The notes under the pieces were generated by a model. It was not told the origin of the DNA. It saw nothing but the letters and a program-made list of their open reading frames with translations, and did no database searches. From Gammaproteobacteria bacterium (GTDB lineage: Bacteria; Pseudomonadota; Gammaproteobacteria; JBCCGL01), in the NCBI GenBank assembly GCA_965277715.1, contig OZ255836.1, positions 576,001 through 640,000 on the forward strand: a stretch of DNA of 64,000 bases, given 5' to 3'. Below, one piece after another: positions 1,257-18,715 of the stretch. Both the position numbers and the translations under genes were made by a program. The number at the start of each line of letters is the position of its first letter. Position 1 is the first letter of the stretch.

Positions 1257-1330
1257 TGGTTTATCTTTTCTGTTGGGGAACAGGAGGTTGTTTGGGATCG
1301 GGATGGTGTTATATGGTTATATGGTTATAT

Positions 1331-1405
1331 GGTTTGCACCAGACTCAGGTTAAAGCGGTAGTGACTGCGCACTGGCTTGAGCGCATCGATGGCCTGGTGC
1401 AATTT
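1331..1405 (-). pseudogene. Remnant of the 3' end of the gpI-like baseplate gene
   Basis: Translates as KLHQAIDALKPVRSHYRFNLSLVQT, matching gpI KLHQVIDAVKPVRSHYSFSLSLVQT at 11256-11330. Confidence 0.8.
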
Positions 1406-1500
1406 AGTGTGAAAACTGGACGATGAGTTTGCCTGCCGGTAATGGCAGAGTTTGCTGTCGCATACCTTGAAACAAGGCAATCACTGTCCCTAATCAACCA

Positions 1501-2106: not shown

Positions 2107-2257
2107 CGAATCGAAGTACCATTCCTAGTTCATATGGCCGGGGTTTATCCAAGTTACCAGGTAATGTCCTTTGCGGTGAGATATCGCCCCTGACGGCACA
2201 GTATCTCGCCCTCTGTATCGGACCACACCCGCCAACGGGACCCGTGACCGCTAATAG

Positions 2258-5200
2258 TCATCTTGGTCTCTTATACCGAATCAATACTCCATTCCTGGTA
2301 TCTGCCGTACCGGCGTTTAAATTACGCCATGTTATAACTACCGGCTTCCAATGCCAGTGCGCGTTTACGGTGAGATTTCCTTCTATGACCGCATTGCCAT
2401 CTACCTCTAGATTATCATCACCGGGATCCGAATTGCCGCCTATATGCACACCGCCGTTGACCGCTAATTTTGCAGCGGGGCTGGCGGTGCCGATACCGAC
2501 TTTGCCCTCTTTAATCACCCCCTGCAGTTGATACTCGTGTACCCAGGTACTACCCTCCCGGCGGAAAATATAGGCACTGCCGGTATTAGGCCCTTCCGTA
2601 TTTTCACCATGAGCCCCAACGAGGGCGCGATCACCATCGATAGACACCGAATAACCGAAACATTCGTTGACCTGTGCTTTAATCGCCTGCAGTTTCTGTT
2701 GCGTAGCGTTAACGACACTGGTATCAAGCCTACCGATGATTGATCCACTGATCGTGCCACTCACCGACAGGTCGCCACTAATATGGATATTGCCAGCGCT
2801 ATCAACCGTTAACGCTGCCGTGCCATCCTCTTTGTATAATTGCAAAGCACCCCCGTCAGTAATACTGATACGGTTGGTGCCACCGGCATCTTTTAAGGTT
2901 AAATTACCGTTATCCGGCAGGCTGATACGGGCAGTGCCATCGGCATCTTTGATATCGCCGCCACTGACCTTCAGATCACCCGTAACTGTGGCATCGCCAT
3001 CCACCTCTAAATTATTATCGCCGGGATTTGAAACGCCGCCTATATGTACACCCCCGTCGACCGCTAATTTTGCAGCGGGGCTAGCAGTGCCGATACCGAC
3101 GTTGCCATTTTTAATCACCATCTGGACGGTGCCGCCAGTACCGGCGTTCAATGCACCATCGTTATGGCTACCGCCCTTAAACCACGCGAAGTTATAGGCA
3201 GTTCTAAAATATTGGGTGTGACTCTGTATTCCTATACCGTAATCGGTGCCCCACATGTCAATCATCTGACTCGTATTTTGGTCGAAGCCCATCTTACCAC
3301 TCACCACCAAGTCACCACTGAGGTCGATATTGCCAGAGGTATTAACCGTTAACGCCGCAGTGCCACCGTCCTCGTGCAATTGCAAGGCACCCCCGTCAGC
3401 AATACTGATACGGCTGGTGCCACCGGCATCTTTTAAGGTTAAATTACCGTTATCCGGCAGGCTGATACGGGCAGTGCCGCCGGTATCTTTGATATCGCCG
3501 CCACTGACTTGCAGGTCACCCGTGACGGTGGCATCGCCACTCACCGCCAGGTCACCACTGAGGCCGACATTACCTGTGCTATCAACTGTTAACGCCGCCG
3601 TGCCACCGTCCTCGTGTAATTGCAAGGCACCCCCGTCAGCAATACTGATACGGCTGGTGCCACCGGCATCTTTTAAGGTTAAATTACCGTTATCCGGCAG
3701 GCTGATACGGGCAGTGCCATCGGCATCTTTGATATCGCCGCCACTGACCTTCAGATCACCCGTGACGGTGGCATCGCCATCCACCACTAATTTTGCATCG
3801 GGGTTAGTGGTGCCGATACCGACATTGCCCTCTTCAATCACCATCTGGACGGTGCCGCCAGTACCGGCGTTGAATTTTGCATCGTTATGGCTACCGCCCT
3901 TAAACCACGCGAAATTGTGCTCGGTTCTAAAATATTGAGTATGAGTCTGTACTCCAATACCGAACACAGTATTCCACAAGTTAATCATTTGTCGCACAGT
4001 TGCGCCGAAGCTCGCCTTGCCATTAGCCACCGACAGGTCACCACTGAGGCCGACATTACCTGTGCTATCAACCGTTAACGCCGCCGTGCCACCGTCCTCG
4101 TGTAATTGCAAGGCACCCCCGTCAGCAATACTGATACGGTTGGTGCCACCGGCATCCTTTAAGGTTAGATTACCGTTATCCGGCAGGCTGATACGGGCAG
4201 TGCCGCCGGTATCTTTGATATCGCCGCCACTGACTTGCAGGTCACCACTGAGGCTGACATTACCTGTGCTATCAACCGTTAACGCCGCTGTGCCACCGTC
4301 CTCGTGTAATTGCAAGGCACCCCCGTCGGCAATACTGATACGGTTGGTGCCACCGGCATCCTTTAAGGTTAGATTACCGTTATCCGGCAGGCTGATACGG
4401 GCAGTGCCGCCGGTATCTTTGATATCGCCGCCACTGACCTTCAGATCACCCGTGACGGTGGCATCGCCACTCACCGCCAGGTCACCACTGAGATCGACAT
4501 TGCCCGTACTATCCACCGTTAACGCTGCCGTGCCATCATTTTTGTTCAACTGCAAAACGTCGCCATCGGGCATTATCTGGCTGTTGCTACAATTCTCTGC
4601 CGTGCAGTTAAACAACCGCAGCAGTGCCTTGTCGCAACTGTGCGCGCCGCTGCCGCTGGCAGTGGCGATGCAGTCGTAAACAGTCAAGGTGGAGTGGTCG
4701 CATTGATACACCCCGCCGCCATTGGCCGCTTTGTTGTGGTGCAGTTGGGTGGCGGTGATCTGGGTGACATTATTGGCACCATACAGGCCACCACCATTGG
4801 CGCTGGTGTGATGATTAATGATTTTGCAGTTCAGTTCAGACTGTTCGCAGTAGTCCAGAAAAAAAGCGCCGCCCTGGTCAGTGCCGGTTAAGGCACCGCC
4901 CAAACCATTAACCCCACCACGGCCATCAAAACTCCAGCCACGCAACTGAATACCAGTGACGGGTGTGCCAGCGCTGCCCTGCACGGTGAACCGGGCCTGT
5001 GCATTGTCTTTAACCACCACCGTATCTTCCTGGTTAAAGCCGATAATGCTGACGTTTTCCTGGAGTTCCACGCTGTTTTTCAGGATATAGGCGGGGCGGC
5101 CATTAAAGGTATTCTCCGGGTTATCGCCCATGCCACCCCAGGCGCCACTGGCAATATCCGAGCCGATAAAGGGCGTGGTGATGGCAAAGCTGTCGGTAGT

Positions 5201-6205
5201 CACATCGCTAATAGTGTAGGTGCCGCTGTAGTAACGGCTCTGGCTGATCAACACAGTTGTATTGTCACTCAGGCCGTGACCGGCAGAGGTGCAGACCACC
5301 TTGGCGCCGGTTTCAGTCGCTGAGTCGGCAAAGGCGCTAATGGCGCTATAACTTGTGGTGCCCCATTTGGCCGTACCATCGGCAATAAAGTGGGCGTTGA
5401 TATCAAAGCCGTTGGCGGTGACATTGCTGATGCTGTAGTGACCGTTGTGATGGGCGCTTTGGGTAATCACAATCTGGGTGCCGTCGTCGAGTCCGTGGGC
5501 GGCGGCGGTACAGGTGACTTTGGTATTCGGTGAGTTGGTGGCGTTGGCAAAGGCGGTGATTGCCTGCAACACCTGCCAGCGACCGCTATCGTTTGGCTCG
5601 TAGGCACCCTGGATGGGGCTGAGGGCTATGGTACTGTTGGCGGCAATGACTGTGTCGGTGCCGAGGTTAAACACCTGGTCGAATTCCGCCTGGCTGTGAA
5701 TTTTAACCGTGTTGGGGCCGAGCAGCAGGGTGTCCCTGGCCGCCGGGGCCTCCAGCTTGCCGCTGCCATCGATGACGATATCGCCCGCATCGGCCCCAGA
5801 GAAAGTCAGGTCGAAGGCCAGCAGGAAGTCTGTGCCCGCTACCTTCTCGGCCAGCTTTTCATCATTGGCGGCGTAAAGGGCAAAGAGTTCGCCGGTTTCC
5901 AGAAAAAAGCCGATTTCGTAGATGGGGTAGACGCTGGGTACATCGGCGCCCTCGTCTTGCAATGTGGCGGTTAAATGTAACTGGTTTTGCCGGTTGCCGA
6001 TCAGTTCACCACCGGCAATGACAACCCGCTGGATTTCGTGTTTGAGGGCTGTCATATCCTGGGTGGCGGTATAGGGGCCACTGCCCGCGCCGGTTTGACC
6101 ATCGCCCACCGCCACCTCGGCGATGCGTGCAGACATGCCACGGTTTTTGGCATCGATCAGGGCGGTGATGCCCGCGTCGGTAATTATTGGGGTTAGTGTG
6201 CTCAT
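2258..6205 (-). CDS. Tail fibre protein, copy 2 (1315 aa)
   Basis: P2 gpH-like baseplate-anchoring N-terminus (ITDAG...AVGDG...YEIGFF), GG-rich beta-helix-like region, GNVGIGT-type shaft repeats, one FG-GAP repeat near the C-terminus. Confidence 0.88.
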   Translation of the reverse strand: MSTLTPIITDAGITALIDAKNRGMSARIAEVAVGDGQTGAGSGPYTATQDMTALKHEIQRVVIAGGELIGNRQNQLHLTATLQDEGADVPSVYPIYEIGFFLETGELFALYAANDEKLAEKVAGTDFLLAFDLTFSGADAGDIVIDGSGKLEAPAARDTLLLGPNTVKIHSQAEFDQVFNLGTDTVIAANSTIALSPIQGAYEPNDSGRWQVLQAITAFANATNSPNTKVTCTAAAHGLDDGTQIVITQSAHHNGHYSISNVTANGFDINAHFIADGTAKWGTTSYSAISAFADSATETGAKVVCTSAGHGLSDNTTVLISQSRYYSGTYTISDVTTDSFAITTPFIGSDIASGAWGGMGDNPENTFNGRPAYILKNSVELQENVSIIGFNQEDTVVVKDNAQARFTVQGSAGTPVTGIQLRGWSFDGRGGVNGLGGALTGTDQGGAFFLDYCEQSELNCKIINHHTSANGGGLYGANNVTQITATQLHHNKAANGGGVYQCDHSTLTVYDCIATASGSGAHSCDKALLRLFNCTAENCSNSQIMPDGDVLQLNKNDGTAALTVDSTGNVDLSGDLAVSGDATVTGDLKVSGGDIKDTGGTARISLPDNGNLTLKDAGGTNRISIADGGALQLHEDGGTAALTVDSTGNVSLSGDLQVSGGDIKDTGGTARISLPDNGNLTLKDAGGTNRISIADGGALQLHEDGGTAALTVDSTGNVGLSGDLSVANGKASFGATVRQMINLWNTVFGIGVQTHTQYFRTEHNFAWFKGGSHNDAKFNAGTGGTVQMVIEEGNVGIGTTNPDAKLVVDGDATVTGDLKVSGGDIKDADGTARISLPDNGNLTLKDAGGTSRISIADGGALQLHEDGGTAALTVDSTGNVGLSGDLAVSGDATVTGDLQVSGGDIKDTGGTARISLPDNGNLTLKDAGGTSRISIADGGALQLHEDGGTAALTVNTSGNIDLSGDLVVSGKMGFDQNTSQMIDMWGTDYGIGIQSHTQYFRTAYNFAWFKGGSHNDGALNAGTGGTVQMVIKNGNVGIGTASPAAKLAVDGGVHIGGVSNPGDNNLEVDGDATVTGDLKVSGGDIKDADGTARISLPDNGNLTLKDAGGTNRISITDGGALQLYKEDGTAALTVDSAGNIHISGDLSVSGTISGSIIGRLDTSVVNATQQKLQAIKAQVNECFGYSVSIDGDRALVGAHGENTEGPNTGSAYIFRREGSTWVHEYQLQGVIKEGKVGIGTASPAAKLAVNGGVHIGGNSDPGDDNLEVDGNAVIEGNLTVNAHWHWKPVVITWRNLNAGTADTRNGVLIRYKRPR

Positions 6206-6224
6206 TGGTTTATCTTTTCTGTTG
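4370..6224. repeat. Long direct repeat (constant fibre 5' region); other copies at ~9300-11157 and 1-1275
   Basis: Near-identical by eye at offsets +4933 and -4949, and includes the upstream leader (TTGGTTTATCTTTTCTGTTGG on the + strand). Confidence 0.9.
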
Positions 6225-6314
6225 GAGGGGCAGGGGGTGGTTGGATTGCTGAGTAGCTGCTTGCCTCGTTTTCTGCGGGTGTCTTTATAGCAATTTGCTC
6301 TTGATAAGCGCTAA

Positions 6315-9300
6315 TTAGCTTTTCAAGTCGGCGTAATATTGCTCCAGGCGTTCGATTTTGCTTTCCAGAACGGTTTTTTCGCGGTGTCCCTCTTGGATGG
6401 CGCTGATGCATAGCATCAACACACTGTCATAATCAATGGAGCGGAAATCATCGACCTGTTTGCCGTAGACAAAGACTTTGTCCACGGGGGTTTTCCAGTC
6501 GCTCACAGTAAATGAGTATGCGTCCTCAACCGCAATAATGTCTTTGTCCACTTGGCCTTGTTCGTCGACGATCAGTCTGATCTTGTCGCCTACTTGCAGG
6601 TTATGGGGGGCAGTCAGGTAGAGGCTTAAGCGCGATTGATCCGCGTGGTAGTCGATGGCAGAGGCAAGGGTATAAATATCGGGAATAAAATCTGTCGACT
6701 GTTGTACTGCCTGAGGAAAGACCGTTTCAAGCTGCTGGGCAATTAGACCTTTTTTCTCATCGCTGCCCTTTTGCACGGTATCGATATAAGCGTAATCCGT
6801 CACCTCTATATTAAGTAGTTTGGTTACATCCGCCGCCGCATTGGAGCGCTGTTTAATCTGCTTGATTCTTTGGTCTGACACGGCTTGAAACTCGGTAGAT
6901 CTGATGGCGTTATCTGCTTTTATGCTGACATCCCAAGTACTGGTAACACGGCCTATACTACCGCTGCTAGACAAGTATCCATAAGTAGCGCGTGACGAAG
7001 TACCACCCGCCACATGCAGTGGAAAACCAGGGCTAGTGGTGCCGATACCGACTTTGCTACCTTTAATCACCATCTGGACGGTGCCGCCAGTACCGGCGTC
7101 TAACTCGTCACCGTTATGGCTACCACCCTTAAACCACGCGAAATTATACTCGGTTCTAAAGTATTGGGTATGATGCTGTACTCCGATACTGTACTGAGTA
7201 CTCCACAAATCAATCATCTGGCGCGTGGTTGTGCCGAAGTCCATCTTGCCACCCACCCGCAAATTATTATCGCCAGGATCCGAGTCGCCGCCTATATGCA
7301 CCCCCCCGTTGACCGCTAATTTTGCAGCGGGGCTGGCGGTGCCGATACCGACATTGCCCTCGCTGTCAACCGTTAACGCCGCCGTGCCACCGTCCTCGTG
7401 TAATTGCAAAGCACCCCCGTCAGCAATGCTGATACGGCTGGTGCCACCGGCATCTTTTAAGGTTAGATTACCGTTATCCGGCAGGCTGATACGGGCAGTG
7501 CCGCCGGTATCTTTGATATCGCCGCCACTGACCTTCAGATCACCCGTGACTGTGGCATCGCCATCCACTACTAATTTTGCATCGGGGCTAGCAGTGCCGA
7601 TACCGACGTTGCCATCTTTAATCACCATCTGTACGGTGCCGCCAGTACCAGCGTTGAACTGGTCATCGTTATGGCTACCGCCCTTAAACCACGCGAAGTT
7701 AAGCGCAGTTCTAAAATATTGGGTGTGATACTGTATTCCTATACCGTAATCGGTGCCCCACATGTCAATCATCTGACTCAGATTTTCGTCGAAGTCCATC
7801 TTACCACTCACCACCAAGTCACCACTGAGGTCGATATTGCCAGAGGTATTAACCGTTAACGCCGCAGTGCCACCGTCCTCGTGCAATTGCAAGGCACCCC
7901 CGTCAGCAATGCTGATACGGCTGGTGCCACCGGCATCTTTTAAGGTTAAATTACCGTTATCCGGCAGGCTGATACGGGCAGTGCCATCGGCATCTTTGAT
8001 ATCGCCGCCACTGACCTTCAGATCACCCGTGACGGTGGCATCGCCATCCACCACTAATTTTGCATCGGGGTTAGTGGTGCCGATACCGACGTTGCCCTCT
8101 TCAATCACCATCTGGACGGTGCCGCCAGTACCGGCGTTGAATTTTGCATCGTTATGGCTACCGCCCTTAAACCACGCGAAATTATGCTCGGTTCTAAAAT
8201 ATTGAGTATGAGTCTGTACTCCAATACCGAACACAGTATTCCACAAGTTAATCATTTGTCGCACAGTTGCGCCGAAGCTCGCCTTGCCATTAGCCACCGA
8301 CAGGTCACCACTGAGGCCGACATTACCTGTGCTATCAACTGTTAACGCCGCCGTGCCACCGTCCTCGTGTAATTGCAAGGCACCCCCGTCAGCAATGCTG
8401 ATACGGCTGGTGCCACCGGCATCCTTTAAGGTTAGATTACCGTTATCCGGCAGGCTGATACGGGCAGTGCCGCCGGTATCTTTGATATCGCCGCCACTGA
8501 CTTGCAGGTCACCACTGAGGCTGACATTACCTGTGCTATCAACCGTTAACGCCGCCGTGCCACCATCCTTGTGTAATTGCAAGGCACCCCCGTCGGCAAT
8601 GCTGATACGGCTGGTGCCACCGGCATCTTTGATATCACCACCACTGACCTTCAGATCACCCGTGACGGTGGCATCGCCATCCACTACTAATTTTGCATCG
8701 GGGCTGGCGGTGCCGATACCGACGTTGCCATCTTTAATCACCATCTGGACGGTGCCGCCAGTACCGGCGTTCAATGCACCATCGTTATGGCTGCCGCCCT
8801 TAAACCACGCGAAGTTAACCCCAGTTCTAAAGTATTGGGTGCTACTTTGAATTCCTATACCGTACCCGGTGCCCCACATGTCAATCATCTGACTCAGATT
8901 TTCGTCGAAGCCCACCTTGCCACTCACTGCCAGGTCACCACTGAGATCGACATTGCCCTCGCTGTCAACCGTTAACGCCGCCGTGCCACCGTCCTCGTGC
9001 AATTGCAAGGCACCCCCGTCAGCAATACTGATACGGTTGGTGCCACCGGCATCTTTTAAGGTTAGATTACCGTTATCCGGCAGGCTGATACGGGCAGTGC
9101 CGCCGGTATCTTTGATATCGCCGCCACTGACTTGCAGGTCACCCGTGACGGTGGCATTGCCACTCACCGCCAGGTCACCACTGAGGTCGATATTGCCAGC
9201 GGTATCAACCGTTAACGCCGCTGTGCCACCGTCCTCGTGTAATTGCAAGGCACCCCCGTCGGCAATACTGATACGGCTGGTGCCACCGGCATCCTTTAAG

Positions 9301-11138
9301 GTTAGATTACCGTTATCCGGCAGGCTGATACGGGCAGTGCCACCGGTATCTTTGATATCGCCGCCACTGACCTTCAGATCACCCGTAACGGTGGCATCGC
9401 CACTCACCGCCAGGTCACCACTGAGATCGACATTGCCCGTACTATCCACCGTTAACGCTGCCGTGCCATCATTTTTGTTCAACTGCAAAACGTCGCCATC
9501 GGGCATTACCTGGCTGTTACTACAGTGCTGTGCCGTGCAGTTAAACAACCGCAGCAGTGCCTTGTCGCAACTGTGCGCGCCGCTGCCGCTGGCAGTGGCG
9601 ATGCAGTCGTAAACAGTCAAGGTGGAATGGTCGCATTGATACACTCCGCCGCCATTGGCCGCCTTGTTGTGGTGCAGTTGGGTGGCGGTGATCTGGGTGA
9701 CATTATTGGCACCATACAGACCACCACCATTGGCGCTGGTGTGATGATTAATGATTTTGCAGTTCAGTTCAGATTGTTCGCAGTAGTCCAGAAAAAAAGC
9801 GCCGCCCTGGTCAGTGCCGGTTAAGGCACCGCCCAAACCATTAACCCCACCACGGCCATCAAAACTCCAGCCACGCAACTGAATACCAGTGACGGGTGTG
9901 CCAGCGCTGCCCTGCACGGTGAACCGGGCCTGTGCATTGTCTTTAACCACCACCGTATCTTCCTGGTTAAAACCGATAATGCTGACGTTTTCCTGGAGTT
10001 CCACGCTGTTTTTCAGGATATAGGCGGGGCGGCCATTAAAGGTATTCTCCGGGTTATTGCCCATGCCACCCCAGGCGCCACTGGCAATATCCGAGCCGAT
10101 AAAGGGCGTGGTGATGGCAAAGCTGTCGGTAGTCACATCGCTAATAGTGTAGGTGCCGCTGTAGTAACGGCTCTGGCTGATCAACACAGTTGTATTGTCA
10201 CTCAGGCCGTGACCGGCAGAGGTGCAGACCACCTTGGCGCCGGTTTCAGTCGCTGAGTCGGCAAAGGCGCTAATGGCGCTATAACTTGTGGTGCCCCATT
10301 TGGCCGTACCATCGGCAATAAAGTGGGCGTTGATATCAAAGCCGTTGGCGGTGACATTGCTGATGCTGTAGTGACCGTTGTGATGGGCGCTTTGGGTAAT
10401 CACAATCTGGGTGCCGTCGTCGAGTCCGTGGGCGGCGGCGGTACAGGTGACTTTGGTATTCGGTGAGTTGGTGGCGTTGGCAAAGGCGGTGATTGCCTGC
10501 AACACCTGCCAGCGACCGCTATCGTTTGGCTCGTAGGCACCCTGGATGGGGCTGAGGGCTATGGTACTGTTGGCGGCAATGACTGTGTCGGTGCCGAGGT
10601 TAAACACCTGGTCGAATTCCGCCTGGCTGTGAATTTTAACCGTGTTGGGGCCGAGCAGCAGGGTGTCCCTGGCCGCCGGGGCCTCCAGCTTGCCGCTGCC
10701 ATCGATGACGATATCGCCCGCATCGGCCCCAGAGAAAGTCAGGTCGAAGGCCAGCAGGAAGTCTGTGCCCGCTACCTTCTCGGCCAGCTTTTCATCATTG
10801 GCGGCGTAAAGGGCAAAGAGTTCGCCGGTTTCCAGAAAAAAGCCGATTTCGTAGATGGGGTAGACGCTGGGTACATCGGCGCCCTCGTCTTGCAATGTGG
10901 CGGTTAAATGTAACTGGTTTTGCCGGTTGCCGATCAGTTCACCACCGGCAATGACAACCCGCTGGATTTCGTGTTTGAGGGCTGTCATATCCTGGGTGGC
11001 GGTATAGGGGCCACTGCCCGCGCCGGTTTGACCATCGCCCACCGCCACCTCGGCGATGCGTGCAGACATGCCACGGTTTTTGGCGTCGATCAGGGCGGTG
11101 ATGCCCGCGTCGGTAATTATTGGGGTTAGTGTGCTCAT
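6315..11138 (-). CDS. Tail fibre protein, copy 1 (1607 aa), with C-terminal peptidase S74 intramolecular chaperone
   Basis: Same N-terminus as copy 2, modular repeats, C-terminal SDQRIK...KKGLIAQQLETVFPQAV...IDYDSV...SAIQE typical of S74/ICA domains. Confidence 0.9.
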   Translation of the reverse strand: MSTLTPIITDAGITALIDAKNRGMSARIAEVAVGDGQTGAGSGPYTATQDMTALKHEIQRVVIAGGELIGNRQNQLHLTATLQDEGADVPSVYPIYEIGFFLETGELFALYAANDEKLAEKVAGTDFLLAFDLTFSGADAGDIVIDGSGKLEAPAARDTLLLGPNTVKIHSQAEFDQVFNLGTDTVIAANSTIALSPIQGAYEPNDSGRWQVLQAITAFANATNSPNTKVTCTAAAHGLDDGTQIVITQSAHHNGHYSISNVTANGFDINAHFIADGTAKWGTTSYSAISAFADSATETGAKVVCTSAGHGLSDNTTVLISQSRYYSGTYTISDVTTDSFAITTPFIGSDIASGAWGGMGNNPENTFNGRPAYILKNSVELQENVSIIGFNQEDTVVVKDNAQARFTVQGSAGTPVTGIQLRGWSFDGRGGVNGLGGALTGTDQGGAFFLDYCEQSELNCKIINHHTSANGGGLYGANNVTQITATQLHHNKAANGGGVYQCDHSTLTVYDCIATASGSGAHSCDKALLRLFNCTAQHCSNSQVMPDGDVLQLNKNDGTAALTVDSTGNVDLSGDLAVSGDATVTGDLKVSGGDIKDTGGTARISLPDNGNLTLKDAGGTSRISIADGGALQLHEDGGTAALTVDTAGNIDLSGDLAVSGNATVTGDLQVSGGDIKDTGGTARISLPDNGNLTLKDAGGTNRISIADGGALQLHEDGGTAALTVDSEGNVDLSGDLAVSGKVGFDENLSQMIDMWGTGYGIGIQSSTQYFRTGVNFAWFKGGSHNDGALNAGTGGTVQMVIKDGNVGIGTASPDAKLVVDGDATVTGDLKVSGGDIKDAGGTSRISIADGGALQLHKDGGTAALTVDSTGNVSLSGDLQVSGGDIKDTGGTARISLPDNGNLTLKDAGGTSRISIADGGALQLHEDGGTAALTVDSTGNVGLSGDLSVANGKASFGATVRQMINLWNTVFGIGVQTHTQYFRTEHNFAWFKGGSHNDAKFNAGTGGTVQMVIEEGNVGIGTTNPDAKLVVDGDATVTGDLKVSGGDIKDADGTARISLPDNGNLTLKDAGGTSRISIADGGALQLHEDGGTAALTVNTSGNIDLSGDLVVSGKMDFDENLSQMIDMWGTDYGIGIQYHTQYFRTALNFAWFKGGSHNDDQFNAGTGGTVQMVIKDGNVGIGTASPDAKLVVDGDATVTGDLKVSGGDIKDTGGTARISLPDNGNLTLKDAGGTSRISIADGGALQLHEDGGTAALTVDSEGNVGIGTASPAAKLAVNGGVHIGGDSDPGDNNLRVGGKMDFGTTTRQMIDLWSTQYSIGVQHHTQYFRTEYNFAWFKGGSHNGDELDAGTGGTVQMVIKGSKVGIGTTSPGFPLHVAGGTSSRATYGYLSSSGSIGRVTSTWDVSIKADNAIRSTEFQAVSDQRIKQIKQRSNAAADVTKLLNIEVTDYAYIDTVQKGSDEKKGLIAQQLETVFPQAVQQSTDFIPDIYTLASAIDYHADQSRLSLYLTAPHNLQVGDKIRLIVDEQGQVDKDIIAVEDAYSFTVSDWKTPVDKVFVYGKQVDDFRSIDYDSVLMLCISAIQEGHREKTVLESKIERLEQYYADLKS

Positions 11139-11183
11139 TGGTTTATCTTTTCTGTTGGGGAACAGGAGGTTGTTTTGAGTTGT

Positions 11184-12119
11184 TTATAATGAAGCCGCCA
11201 TATTAAACCGCTTATAACTAACCGCCTTGCTACTGACAGCCAGCCGCATATAACCGGTTTGCACCAAACTTAAGCTAAAGCTGTAGTGGCTGCGCACTGG
11301 CTTGACCGCATCGATAACCTGGTGCAGTTTATTGTTGAGCGCCGCCGTACCCGCACCAGGGGTGCTGGCGTTGACCAGAAACTCCAGGTGAAAGGTGTGG
11401 GGCAGACCCCTGGGCGTCTGCTGCCACCATTCGGTGAGGGTGATGCTGATATAGGCAAAGGAGCGTTCAAGCGCATTTTGTACACTGGCCCGGGTGCCTT
11501 TGTGTTGATGAATAAAGGCGCTTTTGCGGATCAGGTTCCGGCGGCGGATGGATTCTTCCACCGGGTCATTGGCATTGCTGAACCAGGTATCACCGGAGGT
11601 GGCCCAGGCCAGCCAGGGCAGTAAGGCCTGTGGGCAGCGAGAAGGGTCCCACAGGCTGTCGATCAGTACCGGTAACTGGTTCAGGCGGTCACCCGTCAGC
11701 GACAGTTGCCGCTCCAATCTGCTGGCATTGGGGGGCAGCAGATGCACCTCGCTTTTTAAGGGGCGACTGGCGTACAGGCGTTGGCTTTGTGTGGTATCAG
11801 TCACCCACACCAGCAGGTGACTGGCACCGTCTGGAATGACGGTATTGTCAAACCGATGGAACAGCGGCCGCTGGTAGGTATAGACAGGTGCCTCCTTGGT
11901 ACCGGTATTCAGGGAACTGTATTCGGCAATTTTACTGTGAACGGCCAGCTTTTCCTGTGCGTTGCGCCCCCAGTGGAGTTCGATAACACGCAGGTTCCGG
12001 TGACTGTGATCGTGACAGAGGATCAACGGCCCATTGAGCACACCGGTGCGGGTGGCCGTATTCACAAAGGCAATGGTATCGACCTTCTGGTTAAGGGGCA
12101 CAGTGGCGGTTATCGACAT
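11184..12119 (-). CDS. Phage P2 gpI-like tail/baseplate protein with extra N-terminal domain
   Basis: LLPPNASRLERQL...LWDPSRCPQALLPWLAW...HQHKGT...EWWQ...DAVKPVRSH motifs after a ~120-aa extension. Confidence 0.9.
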   Translation of the reverse strand: MSITATVPLNQKVDTIAFVNTATRTGVLNGPLILCHDHSHRNLRVIELHWGRNAQEKLAVHSKIAEYSSLNTGTKEAPVYTYQRPLFHRFDNTVIPDGASHLLVWVTDTTQSQRLYASRPLKSEVHLLPPNASRLERQLSLTGDRLNQLPVLIDSLWDPSRCPQALLPWLAWATSGDTWFSNANDPVEESIRRRNLIRKSAFIHQHKGTRASVQNALERSFAYISITLTEWWQQTPRGLPHTFHLEFLVNASTPGAGTAALNNKLHQVIDAVKPVRSHYSFSLSLVQTGYMRLAVSSKAVSYKRFNMAASL

Positions 12120-12227
12120 GAGAACTCACTTTTCAGATTGGGTTGAAATAAGACCGCTGGCCCCGAATTAAACACGCCAGAAAAACACACAAGGGCCAAG
12201 CCCTCCAGCCGTATAGCCATATAACAA

Positions 12228-13631
12228 TTAATCAATAGAAACACTCACCCCATACAACATTTCACCAAATTCATTTTTGCTAAAAGCAATCAGATGCGTG
12301 GCCCCGGTGGGCACTGGGGTATTGGCCGCAAAGTGATGGGTCAGTGCACTGCCTTTAACGATTTCGGCAATGGGCGGCAGTGCATAACGAACACTGACCT
12401 GGGTATCGTTCAGCGTATTGTTGGTGGCTGTGACCACACCGGTGGTATTGTCCAGGCTGTAATCCTTACCTTTCAGGTAGATAATTTTACCGTCGTTACT
12501 GGTGATCAACAGGGAGGCGACCGGCTGGTGGTCGAGGGTAAACGTGTCCGTTGCAAAGGTGTAGTTTTTAGCGCCCCTGGGCAGTTTTTCGGCATTGTTG
12601 GCACCCCAGTAAAGGATGTAGTGGGTAATATCATAGTCAATATCGGCGGCGGTGAGGGTCACAGTGCCTTCAATCTCGCCGGATGTACCACTATTGGTAA
12701 AGGCGATAGCCTCGACCATATTGTTTGGCGTACTGTAGGGGTGTTCCTGGTAATCAATGGCACCCAGGGTGCCGTAGGGGGCCTGGTAGCGCTCAATCAG
12801 CAGATCGGTGGTAGGCTGGTGCAGTTCGACATTTTGCACACCCGGCTGGTAAAAGGCGGCAAATAAACCCGCGCGGGTAATATCGATGCCGATACCATGG
12901 TGTTTGTCGAGAAAAGCCTGGGCGACCGTACTGGCAGCGGTCAGGACTTCATCCGCCCCGACACCGGGGAACATCTGCACGGTGGCGTCGACGGTAAAGG
13001 GGATAATCTCTGCCGAACTGACCCGAATCTGATCGGTAATGGGGCGTATTTTATCGTGGTTAAGGGCCGCACTGACCGTATCGACTAAATCGGCCGCATT
13101 GCCATTGCCTTCTTTGCTGAGCAGTCGTACATCCACAATACCCGGCGATTCGGAGTAGACGGATACGTCTTTGACCAGGGCTGAGGCCGACAGGGCATGA
13201 AACACATAGGCGCCCTCGGGACCGGCGGTGGAAAAGCCTTCAAAAGCCAGTTGGGTGCGGGTGCGCAGGTGTTCGTCGTCTTCATAGGTGGGCGCTATCG
13301 GTGGCGAGGCGTCGGGGTCGCCGGGGTCGGTTTGCAGGCGACCGATATTCACCAGCGCCGCCAGGTTATCCAGGTTGCTGCCACTGGCGGTGGCCAGCAT
13401 TACCCCGCGTGCGGCCTCGTTGATGCGCTGGCGCAGGTGCATTTCCCGGTAGGCGACAACTTCCAGCAGTTTACTGATGGGGTCGCTTTCGGGCAGGTCG
13501 TTGACGATTAATTCCGGTGCCAGGTTCTGCAGCTCGGTTTTGGTCGCCGCCAGCAGGGTTTCGTAATCCAGCGTCTCGATGATGCTGGGGGGCGGGAGTT
13601 TGGAGAGGTCGATGGTGGTGAACAGGCTCAT
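12228..13631 (-). CDS. Phage P2 gpJ-like baseplate protein with C-terminal extension
   Basis: IDLSKLPPP, ESDPISKLLE..AYRE, FEGFSTAGPEGAYVFHALSA, IRPITD motifs plus ~170 extra C-terminal residues. Confidence 0.92.
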   Translation of the reverse strand: MSLFTTIDLSKLPPPSIIETLDYETLLAATKTELQNLAPELIVNDLPESDPISKLLEVVAYREMHLRQRINEAARGVMLATASGSNLDNLAALVNIGRLQTDPGDPDASPPIAPTYEDDEHLRTRTQLAFEGFSTAGPEGAYVFHALSASALVKDVSVYSESPGIVDVRLLSKEGNGNAADLVDTVSAALNHDKIRPITDQIRVSSAEIIPFTVDATVQMFPGVGADEVLTAASTVAQAFLDKHHGIGIDITRAGLFAAFYQPGVQNVELHQPTTDLLIERYQAPYGTLGAIDYQEHPYSTPNNMVEAIAFTNSGTSGEIEGTVTLTAADIDYDITHYILYWGANNAEKLPRGAKNYTFATDTFTLDHQPVASLLITSNDGKIIYLKGKDYSLDNTTGVVTATNNTLNDTQVSVRYALPPIAEIVKGSALTHHFAANTPVPTGATHLIAFSKNEFGEMLYGVSVSID

Positions 13632-13765
13632 GGGAACCCCTGGTTAGTTGTTGGTTGTCAATTGTTATATTGCTATATGGCTATATTGCTGGGCGTCACT
13701 GTCCTACTTTGATTGCTACGTAGGCTGGTATCCAGCACATGAAAGCAGGGTGAACCACCTTGCCA

Positions 13766-13792
13766 CTGGATTCCCGCATTTGTGGGAATGAC
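13766..13792. repeat. REP/dRS3-like palindrome
   Basis: CTGG-ATTCCC-gcatttgt-GGGAAT-GAC (ATTCCC-N8-GGGAAT) in the intergenic region upstream of gpJ. Confidence 0.55.
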
Positions 13793-13820
13793 GGCTGGGG
13801 ATAGGCCCAGAATGGCGAAT

Positions 13821-14333
13821 TTAAGCCGATGTGAATACAGCCTCCTCACCCTGTCCATGCTGTTGAACTTTCCAGGTGCCGGATTTCATCAGCAGGAGGT
13901 CGGGCACAGGTGGGGAACCGATCGGTGGTGGCGGTAGCGCCATCATCGCAGGTACCGTCGCGGTAACGGTAAATGAACCACTGGCATTATCTAAAACAAC
14001 GCCTTGCGATAGAGTTGAAGATTTCTCGGATGCCTTGAGGCCACTTAAGGTAACTTTCAACAAGGTGCCATCCACACCGCCAACCTTAGGTGCTACCGTC
14101 GAAAATGCGCCATGGGTCATTGTGTGATAAGAATCGGTAACACTGTCCATGGCCGTGATGATATCCGACACCAACACGGCGGCTTTGCTGCCGCCAACCG
14201 TTAATTTGCTGCCCGAACCATTGATCTCAACGTCAAAAGAGTTGGCGGTACCGGCGGGGGGGCTGGTTCCCCAGCCCCAATCCGCCGCTGCGGTTAAGCG
14301 TATAATCGCACCCTTTACCAAGACGTTAGCCAT
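13821..14333 (-). CDS. Putative contractile injection system spike-tip (PAAR-equivalent) protein
   Basis: Coupled directly behind gpV, 170 aa, beta-rich, with a PAM..PPPP..PPVPD..SGTW segment reminiscent of CIS spike-tip proteins. The call rests mainly on position. Confidence 0.5.
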   Translation of the reverse strand: MANVLVKGAIIRLTAAADWGWGTSPPAGTANSFDVEINGSGSKLTVGGSKAAVLVSDIITAMDSVTDSYHTMTHGAFSTVAPKVGGVDGTLLKVTLSGLKASEKSSTLSQGVVLDNASGSFTVTATVPAMMALPPPPIGSPPVPDLLLMKSGTWKVQQHGQGEEAVFTSA

Positions 14334-15280
14334 CAGCTGACATCCAGGGTGCCGGTCACTTTGACATCGCCTTCGATGGCAATGTTCTTGGCGGTGATGT
14401 TGAGATCCTGCTGGTCGGCATTAATCTTGACAGCCCCATTTTGATTAATCGTGATTATCGTAGACCCCGCACTGAACTCTATTTTTTTATTTCGATTAAT
14501 CGTGACCTCCGTAGCCCCCGCACTGAGCACCATTTTTTCCTCATCTTTAGCACTGGCATCAATCAGCACTTTAACTTTGGGGTCACTCGCCGAACCGGCA
14601 ATCAGGGTGGTTTTTGCTTTTGACACCAGTTGTAACTCGCCGCCCTTACCACTGGTGGTGTCGATCTCAAGGGCGATATCCGGCTCTGTTGTGCTGCCCA
14701 CTTTTAAGGCCAGCCTGGCGGTGCCTTCGCTGCTGCCCTCGGGGTCCATGATCGCGGTAAGGTTCAGGGACTTTTCAGCCTTTGGGCTGCTTTTGATTTC
14801 CAACCCCAGTTCGTGTTTGCTGCGGTCGTAGTGAATGTGGGTGCCGTCTTTATAGAAGCGTTGGTGAATGAGTGCATCTGTGTCCTTGGGAAAAAGGTCT
14901 CGTTTTATTACCCCGCTGGCGTTTTCACCGTCGAAGGTAACGCTGGCCCGGTACAGGGCACCTATCACAATACCCAATGCCAGGTCACCCGAGGGTGCCA
15001 CGACCAGTACCTGTTCGTGCAGTTCCGGCTGCCACCACTCGCCATCGTATCCGGCGCGCAGGGTTACCCAGGGCATCCAGTTGCGGGTAAAGCTGTCTGC
15101 TGTTTTACCGCCCACCTGCACCAGTACGTGGGGCACATCTATTGGTGCCTTGCTGTCATCAGGGCCTTTTTCGACGATTTTGCCGGTATGCACTATGCCA
15201 CTGAGCATGGTGTTGTGCCGACTGAGCGCACCTTCCATTTCAAGGGAGGACTGCTCGACCGTATCGTCAATAAGTGGCAT
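14333..15280 (-). CDS. Baseplate assembly protein V (gpV/VgrG-like spike)
   Basis: WMPWVTLRAG..WWQPELHEQVLVVAPSGD..GIVIGALY OB-fold motif, DGTHIHYD, beta-strand repeat C-terminus. Confidence 0.9.
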   Translation of the reverse strand: MPLIDDTVEQSSLEMEGALSRHNTMLSGIVHTGKIVEKGPDDSKAPIDVPHVLVQVGGKTADSFTRNWMPWVTLRAGYDGEWWQPELHEQVLVVAPSGDLALGIVIGALYRASVTFDGENASGVIKRDLFPKDTDALIHQRFYKDGTHIHYDRSKHELGLEIKSSPKAEKSLNLTAIMDPEGSSEGTARLALKVGSTTEPDIALEIDTTSGKGGELQLVSKAKTTLIAGSASDPKVKVLIDASAKDEEKMVLSAGATEVTINRNKKIEFSAGSTIITINQNGAVKINADQQDLNITAKNIAIEGDVKVTGTLDVS

Positions 15281-15383
15281 GGGCGTTTACTCTTGTTAGT
15301 GACTGATGAACACTGCTAAAAATTGGCATTTCCGCCTCTGCGGGCGTCACGAAAGATACATTTTTAGTGCTGCGCTGATGGTG

Positions 15384-15722
15384 TTATTGGATGGTCAGAT
15401 TTTCCAGGCGGATAATCCGATTGTCCGGCAGGTAGTGCCCTTCAATGGTGAAGTCAATACGCCCCTCGGCCACGTCGTTAACGGCCACCTGGCTCAATTT
15501 TAAACGCGGTTCGTAATACCCCAGGGCTTCGGTAATGGCCACCTGGATAGTCGCCACCAGGTTTTCGTTAACGGGTTGATCCAGTAGGTACATCAGCCGT
15601 GATCCATAGCTGCGGCGCATAATACGGGTGCCAATAGGGGTTGACAGGATGTCTTTGATGGATTGTTCCAGGTGCTTCATGCCATTGAGAACTTTACCTG
15701 TTTGCGCGTGCATGCCTTTCAT
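15384..15722 (-). CDS. Baseplate protein W (gpW/gp25 family)
   Basis: GMHAQTGK..HLEQSIKDILSTPIGTRIMRRSYGS..YEPRL; ATG at 15722 chosen. Confidence 0.92.
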   Translation of the reverse strand: MKGMHAQTGKVLNGMKHLEQSIKDILSTPIGTRIMRRSYGSRLMYLLDQPVNENLVATIQVAITEALGYYEPRLKLSQVAVNDVAEGRIDFTIEGHYLPDNRIIRLENLTIQ

Positions 15723-15756
15723 TGGGAATGTCTCTGTGTGGGGGTTGGTGCGGTGC

Positions 15757-16284
15757 TTATGCGCTGACAGGCGCAATATAGCTGGCCGGAAGCACCAGCC
15801 TGGATCGCTCGCCCAGCATGTCCAACAGGATAATCACCCGTTCTTTACTGGTGAATGCCATCAGGATTCCCTGGTAGTGTTGCATTGGCCCATCGGTTAT
15901 CTGTACTGCATCGCCCGACTTGAGCCGGGACTTCAGCATGCATTGAACCCTGTGTTCATTTTCATTGTTTATAAATGCCGACACTAATAAATCCGGCACT
16001 TTGGCGGGAGTATGGTCGAAACTCACAATGCTGGAAACGCCGATTGTCGAGCGTATGGGTGACCAGTTGTCCTGCGTTGTGTCCAGGTGGATAAATAAGT
16101 AACGTGGAAACAGTGGTTCTATGGACACGATGTCCTTTGACCGGTGCCGACGTTTCTGGCTGATTAATGGCAGGTATGTCTGGTAACCCTGGCGTTTCAG
16201 GTTTTCCTCGGCAGATCGTTCTTTGTGGGGCTTGCTGTGAATGAGGTACCAGGATTTATTGTTTTCTTTCTGTTCCGCTGGCAT
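15757..16284 (-). CDS. rfaH: RfaH-like (NusG paralogue) transcription antiterminator
   Basis: WYLIHSKPHKE..AEENLKRQGY..EPLFPRYLF..WSPIRSTIGVS NGN domain and KOW (GDAVQITDGP); ops element upstream. Confidence 0.9.
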   Translation of the reverse strand: MPAEQKENNKSWYLIHSKPHKERSAEENLKRQGYQTYLPLISQKRRHRSKDIVSIEPLFPRYLFIHLDTTQDNWSPIRSTIGVSSIVSFDHTPAKVPDLLVSAFINNENEHRVQCMLKSRLKSGDAVQITDGPMQHYQGILMAFTSKERVIILLDMLGERSRLVLPASYIAPVSA

Positions 16285-16409
16285 TGTATTTTTCTCTAAA
16301 ATATTGGCCAAAAAAATACTGGGGGTACTGATGCGTCACCCCTGGATTATTGGAAAAGGAGGGGTGAGGCAGGTCAGTGTGCGTTGTGGTTTCTGTTTTT
16401 CATAGAAAC

Positions 16410-16421
16410 CACGCTACCGCC
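16410..16421 (-). promoter_or_regulatory. ops element (RfaH loading site) in a JUMPstart-like leader
   Basis: Minus strand reads GGCGGTAGCGTG, preceded by hairpin TGCGA-ttgtat-TCGCA. Confidence 0.88.
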
Positions 16422-16564
16422 CTGCGAATACAATCGCATAAGAATAAAAAATTTATTTCTGTCCGTGATTAAAAAATCGCGGAGAGTGCAAACTACCCAG
16501 CCAATCTTTTAAAGCGCCTGTATATTGTGTTGTTGCGCGATGTTTATCTGCCTGGTTGATTTAA

Positions 16565-16628
16565 ATTATATGCAGTTATGATTTTAGTACTTCATGTTTT
16601 GTCATTTTTTTTTTCAAATTTTGTCATT
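16565..16628 (-). promoter_or_regulatory. Putative activator-dependent promoter for the rfaH/baseplate operon
   Basis: TATAAT at 16565-16570 (minus), weak -35, two direct AATGACAAAAnnTGAA boxes with 22-bp period. Confidence 0.55.
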
Positions 16629-16898
16629 TATTTGTTCGTAAATAGCATCAGGTAAAAATATACGATGGAGAATTCTAAAAAATCGTCATCGGGTCTCCTC
16701 TGGCGATATCAGGAATTTACCTTTTTTCTATGTGGGCAGCGCAGGTTGTTATGGAACAGGCACGAAGTAATTTATACTTCTATAAGGTTTAAATAATACG
16801 CTGTGTGTTAATAACACGATCAGCCAACTCAGTTATAAAGTTAATCGATGCATTTGTGAACCCCGAAAATTATTTCGTGCACGTTACTTAATGATTGA

Positions 16899-17661
16899 TT
16901 ATCGAGTGTATTTTTTTCGATATTTACCCGGTGGTAAATTAAAATATTTTTTAAAGGCGTCAGAGAAATAGTTGGGATTTTTGTAGCCAACCCGATAGCC
17001 AATATTCTCAATGGGCAGCCCGGTTTTCCTACAGAGCCTTTCGGCTTCTTTCATGCGCTTCTCAACTAACCACTGGTGAATACCCATACCCAATATGTTT
17101 TTAGAAGCTTGCGCCAGTGTATTCCGATTAGTCCCTATTTTATGGGCCAGGTCTTTCTGAGAGCAGTTTAACGATAGATCGACTAACAGATGCTGGCAGG
17201 CTTTTTGTACTAGTTTTTGCTCGGCGTTCTGTGTCTTTTTCTCTACACTATCCGCTGCAGAAATATAATTCTGCGCAATTGATCTGCTGCCCTCCCGGTG
17301 GTTCCGGGTGTTATGGCGGCTGAGGCAGGATCTAACCCGAATAAGCCATTCGGGGGAAACAACAGGGTACGCAATGTAATCCCATACATCGAGGGAGAAA
17401 ACACGCTCTCTCGATTCCAGGTTATCAATTAGCGCCAGAATAGCCGTGCTATCAGGTTTTTTCCTTGTTATTGAAACTAACGGGTCAAAATTTCTCAAGC
17501 AATCGACAATGATCAAATCATTTTTTTTTTTCAGGCTTGGCATCCCAATCCGTCAAAGTACAACGAAGCACCTCATACCCTTGTTTGCGTAACAACACTG
17601 GCATTAGTGTTTCTTCGCTATTTTCATCACTAACGATTAAAATATTGTATTTTTTATTCAT
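16899..17661 (-). pseudogene. Receiver-like + AraC HTH regulator, frameshifted at an A11 tract
   Basis: The 5' frame MNKKYNILIVSDE..LLRKQGYEV..KPEKKK* (17661-17518) joins DLIIVD..AraC HTH (VGYKNPNYFSDAFKKYFNLPPGKYRK) if the A-run at 17521-17531 has 10 instead of 11 bases. Confidence 0.8.
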
Positions 17662-17929
17662 AATTATTATTTTTACAACCTTACTGCCAGTAGATTAAAA
17701 ATACTAACCACGCCCCAGGAGCATGGAAAGATTCGAGACTCTGGCCTTAAACGCCTACCTATTATTGTTTGTATAATAAATCAGAGTGATTCGATAGGGC
17801 TAAACTCCTTAATAATAAAAACAGATACGAAGTTATAATTAAAAGGTGTTACCTGTCCTGATTTAAACGGGCATCAGTAAACTTAATTCTGGATCAAGGG
17901 TGTTTTTATTCGCAGGCGTTAGCCCTACG

Positions 17930-18195
17930 GTGAGTGAGTCAGTTTATTGTTTTCATGGAAATACGCTACCGCCCTACGAGTACAATCGTATAAAAATAAA
18001 AGCCATCCACACAGCCTTTTAAAGGTTATCCGCATTGCGTTGCTGTGTGGCACTCAATTGTTGAGTTGATTTAAAGTATATGTAGCCCGGTTTTTAGCAC
18101 TTCATTTTTTGTCATTGGTTTTTCATATTTTGTCATTTATTTATCTACAAATAACACCAGGGGGGAAATATGCCACGACAAGCTCTAAAAAATTA
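17930..18195 (-). repeat. Diverged duplicate of the rfaH promoter/leader (~16365-16685)
   Basis: Collinear shared blocks: ops, CTTTTAAAG, GTTGATTTAAA, -10 (TATACT at 18075-18080), two AATGACAAAAnnTGAA boxes with 21-bp period, TCTAAAAAAT. Confidence 0.85.
17962..17973 (-). promoter_or_regulatory. Second ops-like element
   Basis: GGCGGTAGCGTA on the minus strand, preceded by hairpin TACGA-ttgtac-TCGTA. Confidence 0.75.
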
Positions 18196-18365
18196 ATCTG
18201 AGATCAGGTGTAAAGGCATACCTGATAATAGTAGTACCATTTGGCGAAATGATGTGCAAAGCAGAGGGGAGGGGAAAGAGGTATAAAAAAGAGCCAAATT
18301 GGCTTTTCCACAGTAGATCAGTCCTGAACCCGACAGGCTCCTGATATGTATTAACCTGTAACTAA

Positions 18366-18614: not shown

Positions 18615-18715
18615 CGATAGCAGTTTGAACCACTACGGGGAAACCTGTTCAATACACTGAACTAAAATATGCTTTGGCTGCCTATCTGTGCTTATCATTG
18701 CAGGTGAGCAGTTAG

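Follow-up and report, generated by a model that had tools for sequence, protein, structure and literature searches.

The stretch of DNA analysed here, which we call the window, comprises 64,000 nucleotides of a gammaproteobacterial contig (assembly GCA_965277715.1, contig OZ255836.1, positions 576,001 to 640,000 of the forward strand); coordinates are those of the window. On its minus strand, the gene for a receiver-AraC hybrid regulator precedes rfaH, which encodes an RfaH-type paralog of NusG and is the first gene of an operon of P2-like baseplate and fibre genes. Two copies of a promoter-leader cassette, each ~250 bases long and on the same strand, are embedded in this region. Copy 1 lies upstream of the regulator gene and copy 2 upstream of rfaH; each contains a pair of direct-repeat boxes, a -10 hexamer, a short hairpin, and an operon polarity suppressor (ops) element. 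The principal features, with lengths in nucleotides (nt), amino acids (aa), or base pairs (bp), are:

18137-18101, minus strand: two boxes, regulator side; they would span ~-69 to -33 relative to a putative transcription start site (TSS) at ~18068
18080-18075, minus strand: -10 hexamer TATACT, regulator side, 20 nt after the proximal box
17990-17975, minus strand: 5-bp hairpin TACGA-N6-TCGTA, regulator side, one base before ops
17973-17962, minus strand: ops, regulator side, matching at 11/12 positions (A for G at position 12)
17661-16899, minus strand: receiver-AraC (YesN-type) gene, split into open reading frames (ORFs) 17661-17518 (47 aa) and 17543-16899 (214 aa)
17531-17521, minus strand: run of 11 A residues (A11) at the frame break, the longest homopolymer in the window
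16628-16591, minus strand: two boxes, rfaH side; they would span ~-70 to -33 relative to a putative TSS at ~16558
16570-16565, minus strand: -10 hexamer TATAAT, rfaH side, 20 nt after the proximal box
16438-16423, minus strand: 5-bp hairpin TGCGA-N6-TCGCA, rfaH side, one base before ops
16421-16410, minus strand: ops, rfaH side, matching at 12/12 positions (GGCGGTAGCGTG)
16284-15757, minus strand: rfaH (NusG NGN domain; TIGR01955), first operon gene; its stop codon overlaps the gpW start
3..15776, minus strand: P2-like contractile-tail baseplate and fibre genes (identified with Pfam and PHROGs); the operon runs off the window

Local alignment paired 16389-16683 with 17942-18193, with identity in 190 of 236 ungapped columns (80.5%) and gaps in 75 of 311 columns. 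The alignment score of 112 compares with 21.4 +/- 2.0 (maximum 28) for 200 shuffled sequences. Boxes, -10 hexamer, hairpin, and ops are present in both copies, which bears out the original prediction that the AraC gene and rfaH are preceded by the same architecture. As judged by eye from the alignment, identity is concentrated in islands: 30/32 positions in the boxes, 17/18 in the -10 block, and 35/39 in the block formed by a T run, the hairpin, and ops. The stretch between the -10 and the hairpin is rich in indels, one of which measures 38 nt. Conserved islands in such a diverged, indel-rich background suggest that both copies are under constraint; patchy gene conversion could, however, produce a similar picture.

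Each cassette holds two exact copies of the 16-nt box AATGACAAAAnnTGAA (16628-16613 and 16606-16591; 18137-18122 and 18116-18101; minus strand). These four are the sole exact matches in 64 kb, and one more site matches with two mismatches; the chance expectation was 0.48, and five matches were reached in 0/100 shuffles. The box is bipartite (TGAC, six bases, TGAA). The two boxes repeat with a period of 22 bp before rfaH, set by an A10 run (16614-16605) that separates them, and of 21 bp before the regulator gene. The hexamer located 17-18 nt upstream of each -10 matches TTGACA at only 1-2 of 6 positions by eye, and the proximal box ends exactly there. The earlier description of paired boxes with a 21/22-bp period next to a weak -35 therefore holds. 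Neither the TATAAT nor the TATACT hexamer of the cassettes was called as part of a promoter in a sigma-70 scan. AraC/XylS activators use bipartite direct repeats with a 21/22-bp period that overlap the -35, as in I1-I2 of AraC and the XylS sites. With no usable -35 for these hexamers, the combination of a good -10 with direct repeats that reach the -35 position fits promoters that depend on an activator.

The ops 11-mer GGCGGTAGCGT occurs exactly in the window only at 16421-16411 and 17973-17963 (minus strand). Both sites lie on the coding (non-template) strand, and their position places each in a presumably transcribed leader. The 3' base of the hairpin stem is located 12 nt before ops U11, a spacing close to that of pause-stabilising RNA hairpins, which is conceivably the role of this one. 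The available text of a study of the E. coli element states that G8C alone abolishes RfaH recruitment, whereas G12C removes the pause but not recruitment (PMC5995543). Because G12C has this effect in E. coli, the regulator-side ops of the window, with A at position 12, should pause less. In both copies, ATGAAAA begins 5-6 nt after ops and opens short ORFs of 9 and 5 codons (16404-16375 and 17957-17940, minus strand). A conserved leader peptide was rejected, because the related leaders described below keep a YTGRAA motif at this position but no ATG.

The rfaH product was assigned to the RfaH family by the NCBIfam model TIGR01955 (157.3 bits; cut-off 144.5), while the NusG model scored 55.4 bits against a cut-off of 135.7. 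Pfam detected the NusG NGN domain at 1.6e-23. Alignment with E. coli RfaH (5ond_A; 64.8 bits) revealed that equivalents of K10, R23, and Q24 are kept; an arginine that is invariant in a five-member clade occupies the N70 position. The roles of K10, H20, R23, and R73, and also of R16, in contacting ops are described for the E. coli protein in the available text of PMC5995543. Close relatives of the window's protein are few. Among 120 matches listed, one is 99% identical and has the same start (P0001), four are 59-64% identical, and the rest 53% or less. Genome sets drawn from the order of G002 (401 genomes), its family (277), and the G001 family (20) were also searched; the sole close RfaH (61%) was that of Candidatus Endobugula sertula, followed by matches of 46% and 42%. 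A protein scan of genome contigs for RfaH returned 58 pattern matches, none of which was confirmed. Among phages, tblastn with RfaH recovered generic relatives only (best identity 33%) and blastn of the region gave no match.

The operon continues after rfaH with gp25/W (15776-15384), V, a 170-aa gene, J, I, and three giant fibre genes. Genes for a sheath, a tube, or an ATPase were not seen in the 64-kb window, beyond which the operon extends. All tail ORFs in the window are open, as is rfaH; they include ORFs of 1607 and 1315 aa. The three fibre genes (1607 aa, 1315 aa, and >418 aa; 3-11138) share a P2 tail-collar N-terminus and carry FG-GAP and DUF5649 repeats, and one has an S74 intramolecular chaperone domain. 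These genes point to several receptor specificities. An identical stretch of ~34 nt recurs four times on the coding strand of two of these genes (3165-3175, 3888-3898, 7672-7682, and 8155-8165, minus strand). It holds ops positions 1-9 after AAGG, as in the leader, and encodes a repeated ..FAWFKGGSHND.. motif; these ops-like repeats may be a coincidence or an internal site for re-loading of RfaH.

Because rfaH follows its own ops and opens the operon, self-reinforcement by RfaH is a fair inference. The paralog also looks dedicated to the tail locus, because elsewhere in the genomes that contain the related loci L001 and L002 the exact ops 11-mer is found only in coding DNA, at control frequency.

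The second gene with a cassette had been termed an AraC gene. Its product does contain the AraC-type DNA-binding region, a C-terminal double helix-turn-helix (HTH) recognised by HTH_18 (3.3e-20) and HTH_AraC (4.4e-12) of Pfam; the gene as a whole encodes a receiver-AraC hybrid and is frameshifted at the A11 run. A full-length homologue (L001; 255 aa) matches HTH_18 and HTH_AraC, and its Response_reg score of 22.9 bits is below the cut-off of 30.2. Inspection of the receiver by eye indicated that the phospho-acceptor aspartate is kept, while one residue of the acidic pair and the conserved threonine and lysine are not. The best matches of known structure are the YesN-type chains 6swi, 3lsg, and 12aw. 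The close subfamily is small: an exhaustive search of 1.84 billion proteins yielded 11 cluster representatives at E <= 1e-30, and a word-indexed search two close matches. More distant candidates were set aside. In the family of G1017, 35/301 genomes gave regulator-family matches. Of 23 newly fetched loci, the 10 inspected all encode canonical receiver-AraC regulators without an A run at that site, one with an unrelated GGCGGTAG located 1.5 kb upstream, and were rejected as a different subfamily. Plasmids gave generic relatives of at most 30% identity in tblastn, and viral contigs a single locus with 28% identity over the HTH domain only.

Regulator alignments led to four related loci in two genomes: L002 in Ca. 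Endobugula sertula, and L001, L003, and L004 in one metagenome-assembled genome (MAG) of Pseudomonadales. L002 reads regulator, hairpin-ops, rfaH, gpW, V. L001 has an intact regulator and a perfect hairpin-ops, followed by rfaH and gpW stubs (23 and 35 codons) and then giant collar-domain proteins. L003 consists of a truncated regulator, a degenerate hairpin-ops, and giant fibre-like genes. The MAG thus contains three regulator copies, two of which precede a (degenerate) hairpin-ops and giant proteins; these proteins have LVIVD, DUF6519, laminin-G, and tail-collar domains, and no complete tail genes accompany them. RfaH was not found in this MAG with the window RfaH as query. Endobugula has a second RfaH-like gene at 33% identity in addition to a NusG gene, and also a second, eroded leader with a T run and an ops-like element followed by a 35-codon rfaH stub (L008, contig C14). 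A second, intact regulator (L028) lies ~7.7 kb upstream of that leader on the same strand. A search with the hairpin-ops DNA pattern produced no match in viral contigs and one in metagenome contigs, in a coding region on the opposite strand, which was taken as chance.

In all related loci the regulator gene is the direct neighbour; between species, only the block of T run, hairpin, and ops can be aligned. Taken together, the related loci argue that a module of regulator, hairpin-ops, rfaH, and tail genes is ancestral and that its parts multiply and erode. Because hairpin-ops in the relatives lies only between regulator and rfaH, the second cassette copy of the window is best regarded as lineage-specific. 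Three related 260-nt leaders contain the ATGAC core of the box four times, compared with ~0.6 occurrences expected from its frequency in the window. In L001 and L002, this core precedes a TATAT-type hexamer by 32 nt; the corresponding distance in the window is 35 nt. On the minus strand of L028, ~325 nt upstream of the regulator start, 13 nt are identical to the proximal box of the window (AAATGACAAAACA). The match, which was encountered once and may be due to chance, sits in an imperfect inverted repeat and overlaps the initial codons of a divergent gene.

The A run at which the window regulator is broken is present in its homologues. Six copies could be assessed:

Window: A11, out of frame by one extra base
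L002: A9, out of frame by one extra base
L027 (a third genome; 37% identity, 876-nt contig): A7, out of frame by one extra base
L001: A9, in frame
L004: A7, in frame
L028: A7, in frame

The homologous run is therefore out of frame in three of the six, always by the same extra base. Four cluster representatives (P0130, P0131, P0133, and P0169) start exactly after the A-run site. This recurrence suggests either slippage or phase gating, as in MxiE (discussed below), or recurrent decay; it fits a slippage-prone contingency site, and equally a mutational hot spot hit under relaxed selection. The stop codon that follows the run was also considered as a signal for a programmed +1 ribosomal shift and set aside; it is uninformative because the codons AAT GAT or AAT AAT yield a stop once one A is added.

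Near-identical DNA was present in eight listed sequencing runs from four studies; five of these runs are labelled sponge metagenome, and the listing included no RNA data set. We compared strains in four of the eight (X1, X3, X4, and X6), all as contigs, and homopolymer lengths come from contigs only. X1 (depth 183) is identical over the whole stretch, reproduces A11, and is likely to be the assembly from which the window derives. X4 is a 9352-nt contig (depth 20.7) that is 99% identical to the window; its A run is one base longer (A12) and also out of frame. The regulator of X4 differs from that of the window by three substitutions in 763 nt, two of them synonymous, and its RfaH by one (R to Q). 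Only two A/T runs of at least 9 exist in the 64 kb, the A10 run between the rfaH-side boxes and the A11 run in the regulator, and both differ in X4. Loss of one A and an A-to-C change in the rfaH-side box spacer of X4 and X6 lead to a 21-bp period, so that the 22-bp period of the original prediction applies to the rfaH-side copy of the window and varies between strains. Promoter variation through box spacing (21 or 22 bp) is conceivable.

Several further elements were found around the cassettes:

18304-18292, minus strand: terminator-like hairpin and T run upstream of the regulator-side cassette
17726-17708, minus strand: terminator-like hairpin whose T tail is interrupted, in the 300-nt leader ~50 nt ahead of the regulator start
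16890-16723, no strand assigned: dispersed repeat between the regulator stop and the rfaH-side cassette
16412-16386, minus strand: 9-bp stem-loop overlapping the last 3 nt of ops, in the rfaH-side copy only
16398-16321, minus strand: C-rich, G-poor tract behind ops (78 nt with 31 C and 11 G), a candidate entry site for Rho

The C/G ratio of the C-rich tract is 2.82, and fewer than 2% of 78-nt windows on the minus strand reach 2.5. The 9-bp stem-loop has a folding energy of -14.3 kcal/mol (z = -3.0; 1/200 shuffles folds as well). Folds of the 211-nt repeat region and the 321-nt regulator leader were no better than those of shuffled sequences. Three terminator-like sites were found in the region, a count not above the 3.2 +/- 1.8 expected by chance. 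The one at 18304-18292 may insulate the regulator-side cassette from upstream transcription; that at 17726-17708 is a weak candidate for a site of RfaH read-through. Part of the dispersed repeat, 16801-16888, recurs as an inverted copy with 80.7% identity at 28028-27941. More copies probably exist in the genome, since the short contigs at 16723-16757 and 16859-16890 reach 1.2 to 2.7 times the depth around them. On the other side of the module, a DUF547 gene and transporter genes stand on their own.

The cassette layout fits a self-reinforcing switch. We tentatively favour the view, which could well prove wrong, that the locus forms the control region at the head of a tailocin-type cluster of contractile phage-tail-like genes, carried by a sponge-associated gammaproteobacterium, and that it operates as follows. 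An activator bound to the boxes would recruit RNA polymerase to a sigma-70 promoter that lacks a -35, as the geometry of the promoter suggests. About 140 nt into the leader, polymerase would encounter the short hairpin and then ops, where sequence identity predicts that it pauses. The RfaH encoded by the operon itself would load at this site and suppress termination, both in the C-rich, putatively Rho-sensitive leader and over the >16 kb of baseplate and fibre genes. Since rfaH is the first gene behind ops, RfaH would feed back on its own synthesis. The cassette appears to have been copied, in this lineage only, to ~300 nt upstream of the receiver-AraC gene, a layout in which whatever binds the boxes would co-control both units. 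The receiver-AraC protein itself is the most probable candidate for this role, and its binding would create a second loop. Full-length activator would be produced only by DNA or RNA slippage at the A run, with the result that the switch is rarely ON; early decay is the alternative at this step.

A number of observations weigh against this model. The regulator lacks an uninterrupted frame; in the model's favour, its two ORFs both align to full-length homologues, and the run is the only lesion. Neither of the two strains that cover the run has it in frame (A11 and A12; the run lies outside the X3 and X6 contigs). X4 and X6 lack 19 nt at 16396, which leaves ops positions 1-7 and replaces positions 8-12. 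Position 8 becomes C, and because G8C abolishes recruitment in E. coli, an ops of this type before rfaH should not load RfaH. X4 alone lacks another 21 nt at 18107 and thus has a single box before the regulator. With ops 8-12 lost in X4 and X6 and one box in X4, neither loop is kept intact within the species. The RfaH paralog has replaced two of the four side chains that contact ops (H20 by N and R73 by I) as well as R16 (by S). Among the relatives, the main rfaH of Endobugula is frameshifted near codon 14 and the rfaH and gpW of L001 are stubs, as expected of decaying loci. Where the four related loci have a hairpin-ops leader, it always follows the regulator; no cassette was found upstream of the regulator in 702 nt (L001), ~900 nt (L002), or ~840 nt (L004).

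The boxes and hairpin raise similar difficulties. The exact 16-nt box has no copy in three related genomes, where matches with at most one mismatch (4, 2, and 5) are at the level of a control pattern (1, 5, and 3). The claim that the regulator activates itself and rfaH through the boxes is accordingly not supported; promoter geometry and the recurring ATGAC core are what would connect the two. The compensatory change in the hairpin, noted earlier, is real and the hairpins are present. Across five sequences, 23/25 cells pair and one change is double-sided; this is matched by 199/500 shuffles and is not significant, and the folding energies (z = -0.8 and +0.2) are no better than those of shuffled sequence. 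The Rfam covariance model for JUMPstart gave no match in a cmscan of 15700-18700 at E <= 1, which returned one unrelated weak match only. Terminator-like sites such as the one in the regulator leader are no more frequent than chance predicts. Of the switch originally proposed, the promoter geometry, the strand of ops, the RfaH family assignment, and RfaH self-reinforcement as a fair inference survive, whereas the link between boxes and regulator and the intactness of the loops are unsupported or weakened.

Many of these points would be expected if the module were decaying, with the extra cassette a neutral leftover of module duplication, the regulator a recent pseudogene, and no feedback; at most the rfaH-side leader would work. 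The module multiplies and erodes elsewhere, as indicated by the three regulator copies of the MAG, the stubs of L001, the degenerate ops of L003, and the eroded leader L008, and the frameshift in the main rfaH of Endobugula favours decay at that locus. In the window species, the run is out of frame in both covering strains and deletions remove ops 8-12 and one box. We regard this explanation as unlikely but serious. It does not readily account for boxes, -10, and hairpin-ops that are nearly intact in both copies amid diverged sequence, for a regulator with a single lesion and so few, mostly synonymous substitutions relative to X4, or for the open frames of rfaH and all tail genes in the window. 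Nor does the extra copy have a remnant of a second regulator or rfaH beside it. The frame break may instead be the device that sets the frequency of switching: rare slippage would supply a small amount of the frame-broken activator, which would fire both cassettes and thereby increase both its own mRNA and RfaH, and RfaH would antiterminate both transcripts, generating an all-or-none response in few cells. It is tempting to speculate along these lines, since the same one-base break in three of six homologous copies would then be a family trait rather than decay; we nevertheless consider this gated form of the switch distinctly improbable.

The identity of the factor that reads the boxes admits another explanation, in which a different protein, a different sigma factor, or a UP-like role of the boxes co-regulates both units in response to an outside signal, with no autoregulation. 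The exact box is species-specific even though the regulator family is common to the relatives, and the receiver lacks canonical residues (by eye, with a weak Pfam score). Moreover, ATGACA in each box matches the -35 consensus at 5/6 positions, and the scan offers a promoter with the proximal box as its -35 (ATGACA, a 16-nt spacer, AATCAT; 9/12). That alternative -10, AATCAT, is not kept in the regulator-side copy, however; the bipartite box, its 21/22-bp direct repeats, and the overlap with the -35 correspond to AraC/XylS usage, and in each related locus the regulator gene is found immediately alongside. We hold co-regulation by another factor to be doubtful, at a low probability. That the frame break is a homopolymer error of sequencing or assembly, the regulator being intact and not gated, appears very improbable. 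Homopolymer lengths are error-prone and those reported here come from contigs, but A11 is reproduced at depth 183 in X1, the likely source assembly, the independent metagenome contig X4 has A12 and is also out of frame, and the frame is lost at this site in two distant homologues.

Control of tail-like particles by RfaH-type factors and the presence of ops leaders before such operons are already known from the available accounts of the antifeeding prophage (Afp) and the Photorhabdus virulence cassettes (PVC). According to the text available, ops leaders precede PVC and Afp operons and a linked RfaH homologue, AnfA1, controls Afp (PMC6748792); operons for extracellular contractile injection systems (eCIS) are likewise said to be regulated by adjacent RfaH genes (PMC8213781; PMC12961389, in the portions accessible). 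The locus described here resembles these systems, as far as those texts describe them, in combining a tail-like particle cluster whose leader contains ops (GGCGGTAGNNT) with an RfaH-type factor that is linked and dedicated to it. It differs in that the genes follow the P2/R-tailocin order W, V, J, I, fibres and that rfaH is located behind ops, first in the operon. The gene set and order of Afp-type eCIS (sheath and tube first, an AAA+ ATPase, effectors at the 3' end) were not encountered within the window. The module also includes a receiver-AraC gene and a duplicated promoter-ops cassette, which the available Afp/PVC accounts do not describe; nor did we find the duplicated cassette or a receiver-AraC partner in the accessible literature on RfaH with tailocins or contractile injection systems.

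Relative to E. coli RfaH and ops (5OND, 2OUG), the ops 12-mer is identical, the RfaH model is passed, and K10, R23, and Q24 are kept, whereas overall similarity is low, the H20, R73, and R16 equivalents are replaced, and JUMPstart is not matched. E. coli rfaH is not known to be preceded by an ops. UpxY of Bacteroides capsule operons and LoaP are NusG paralogs encoded at or beside the operon that they antiterminate. The window shares with them a specialised NusG paralog whose gene lies in cis, first in the long operon that it would antiterminate; they belong to other subfamilies with other recruitment signals, and the corresponding NCBIfam scores are below cut-offs here (84.3 against 100 and 44.8 against 125). 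YesN-type regulators have the same domain order as the window regulator and provide its best structural-sequence matches, but its receiver is degenerate. In Shigella, the available text describes MxiE as an AraC-family activator produced from two overlapping ORFs by transcriptional slippage, with runs of ~9 being slippage-prone (PMC1088944). The parallel, within the limits of that text, is an AraC-type activator of an injection-type apparatus in two frames split at a long A/T run. The difference is that one base must be lost (or two gained) here, not one gained, and that the run length varies between strains, because of which DNA-level phase variation or decay is equally possible.

New here are an rfaH gene behind its own ops, the constant receiver-AraC neighbour, the use of one cassette twice, and the recurrent frame break at an A run. 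Tail-like particles such as tailocins and eCIS are costly and often lethal to the producer, so they are typically made by few cells. The authors of the PVC study state, in the text available, that promoter inspection gave no clue to the heterogeneity of expression (PMC6748792). If the regulator is simply dead, the locus is an ordinary case of early tail-cluster decay. Otherwise it presents a compact circuit in which a cis cassette is used twice, the operon's RfaH sits behind its own ops, and the frame of the activator depends on a hypermutable run; natural variants with an ops deletion or with a single box in the promoter already exist. The locus also extends an exact ops of the enterobacterial type, which follows a conserved T run and hairpin, to symbionts of marine invertebrates.

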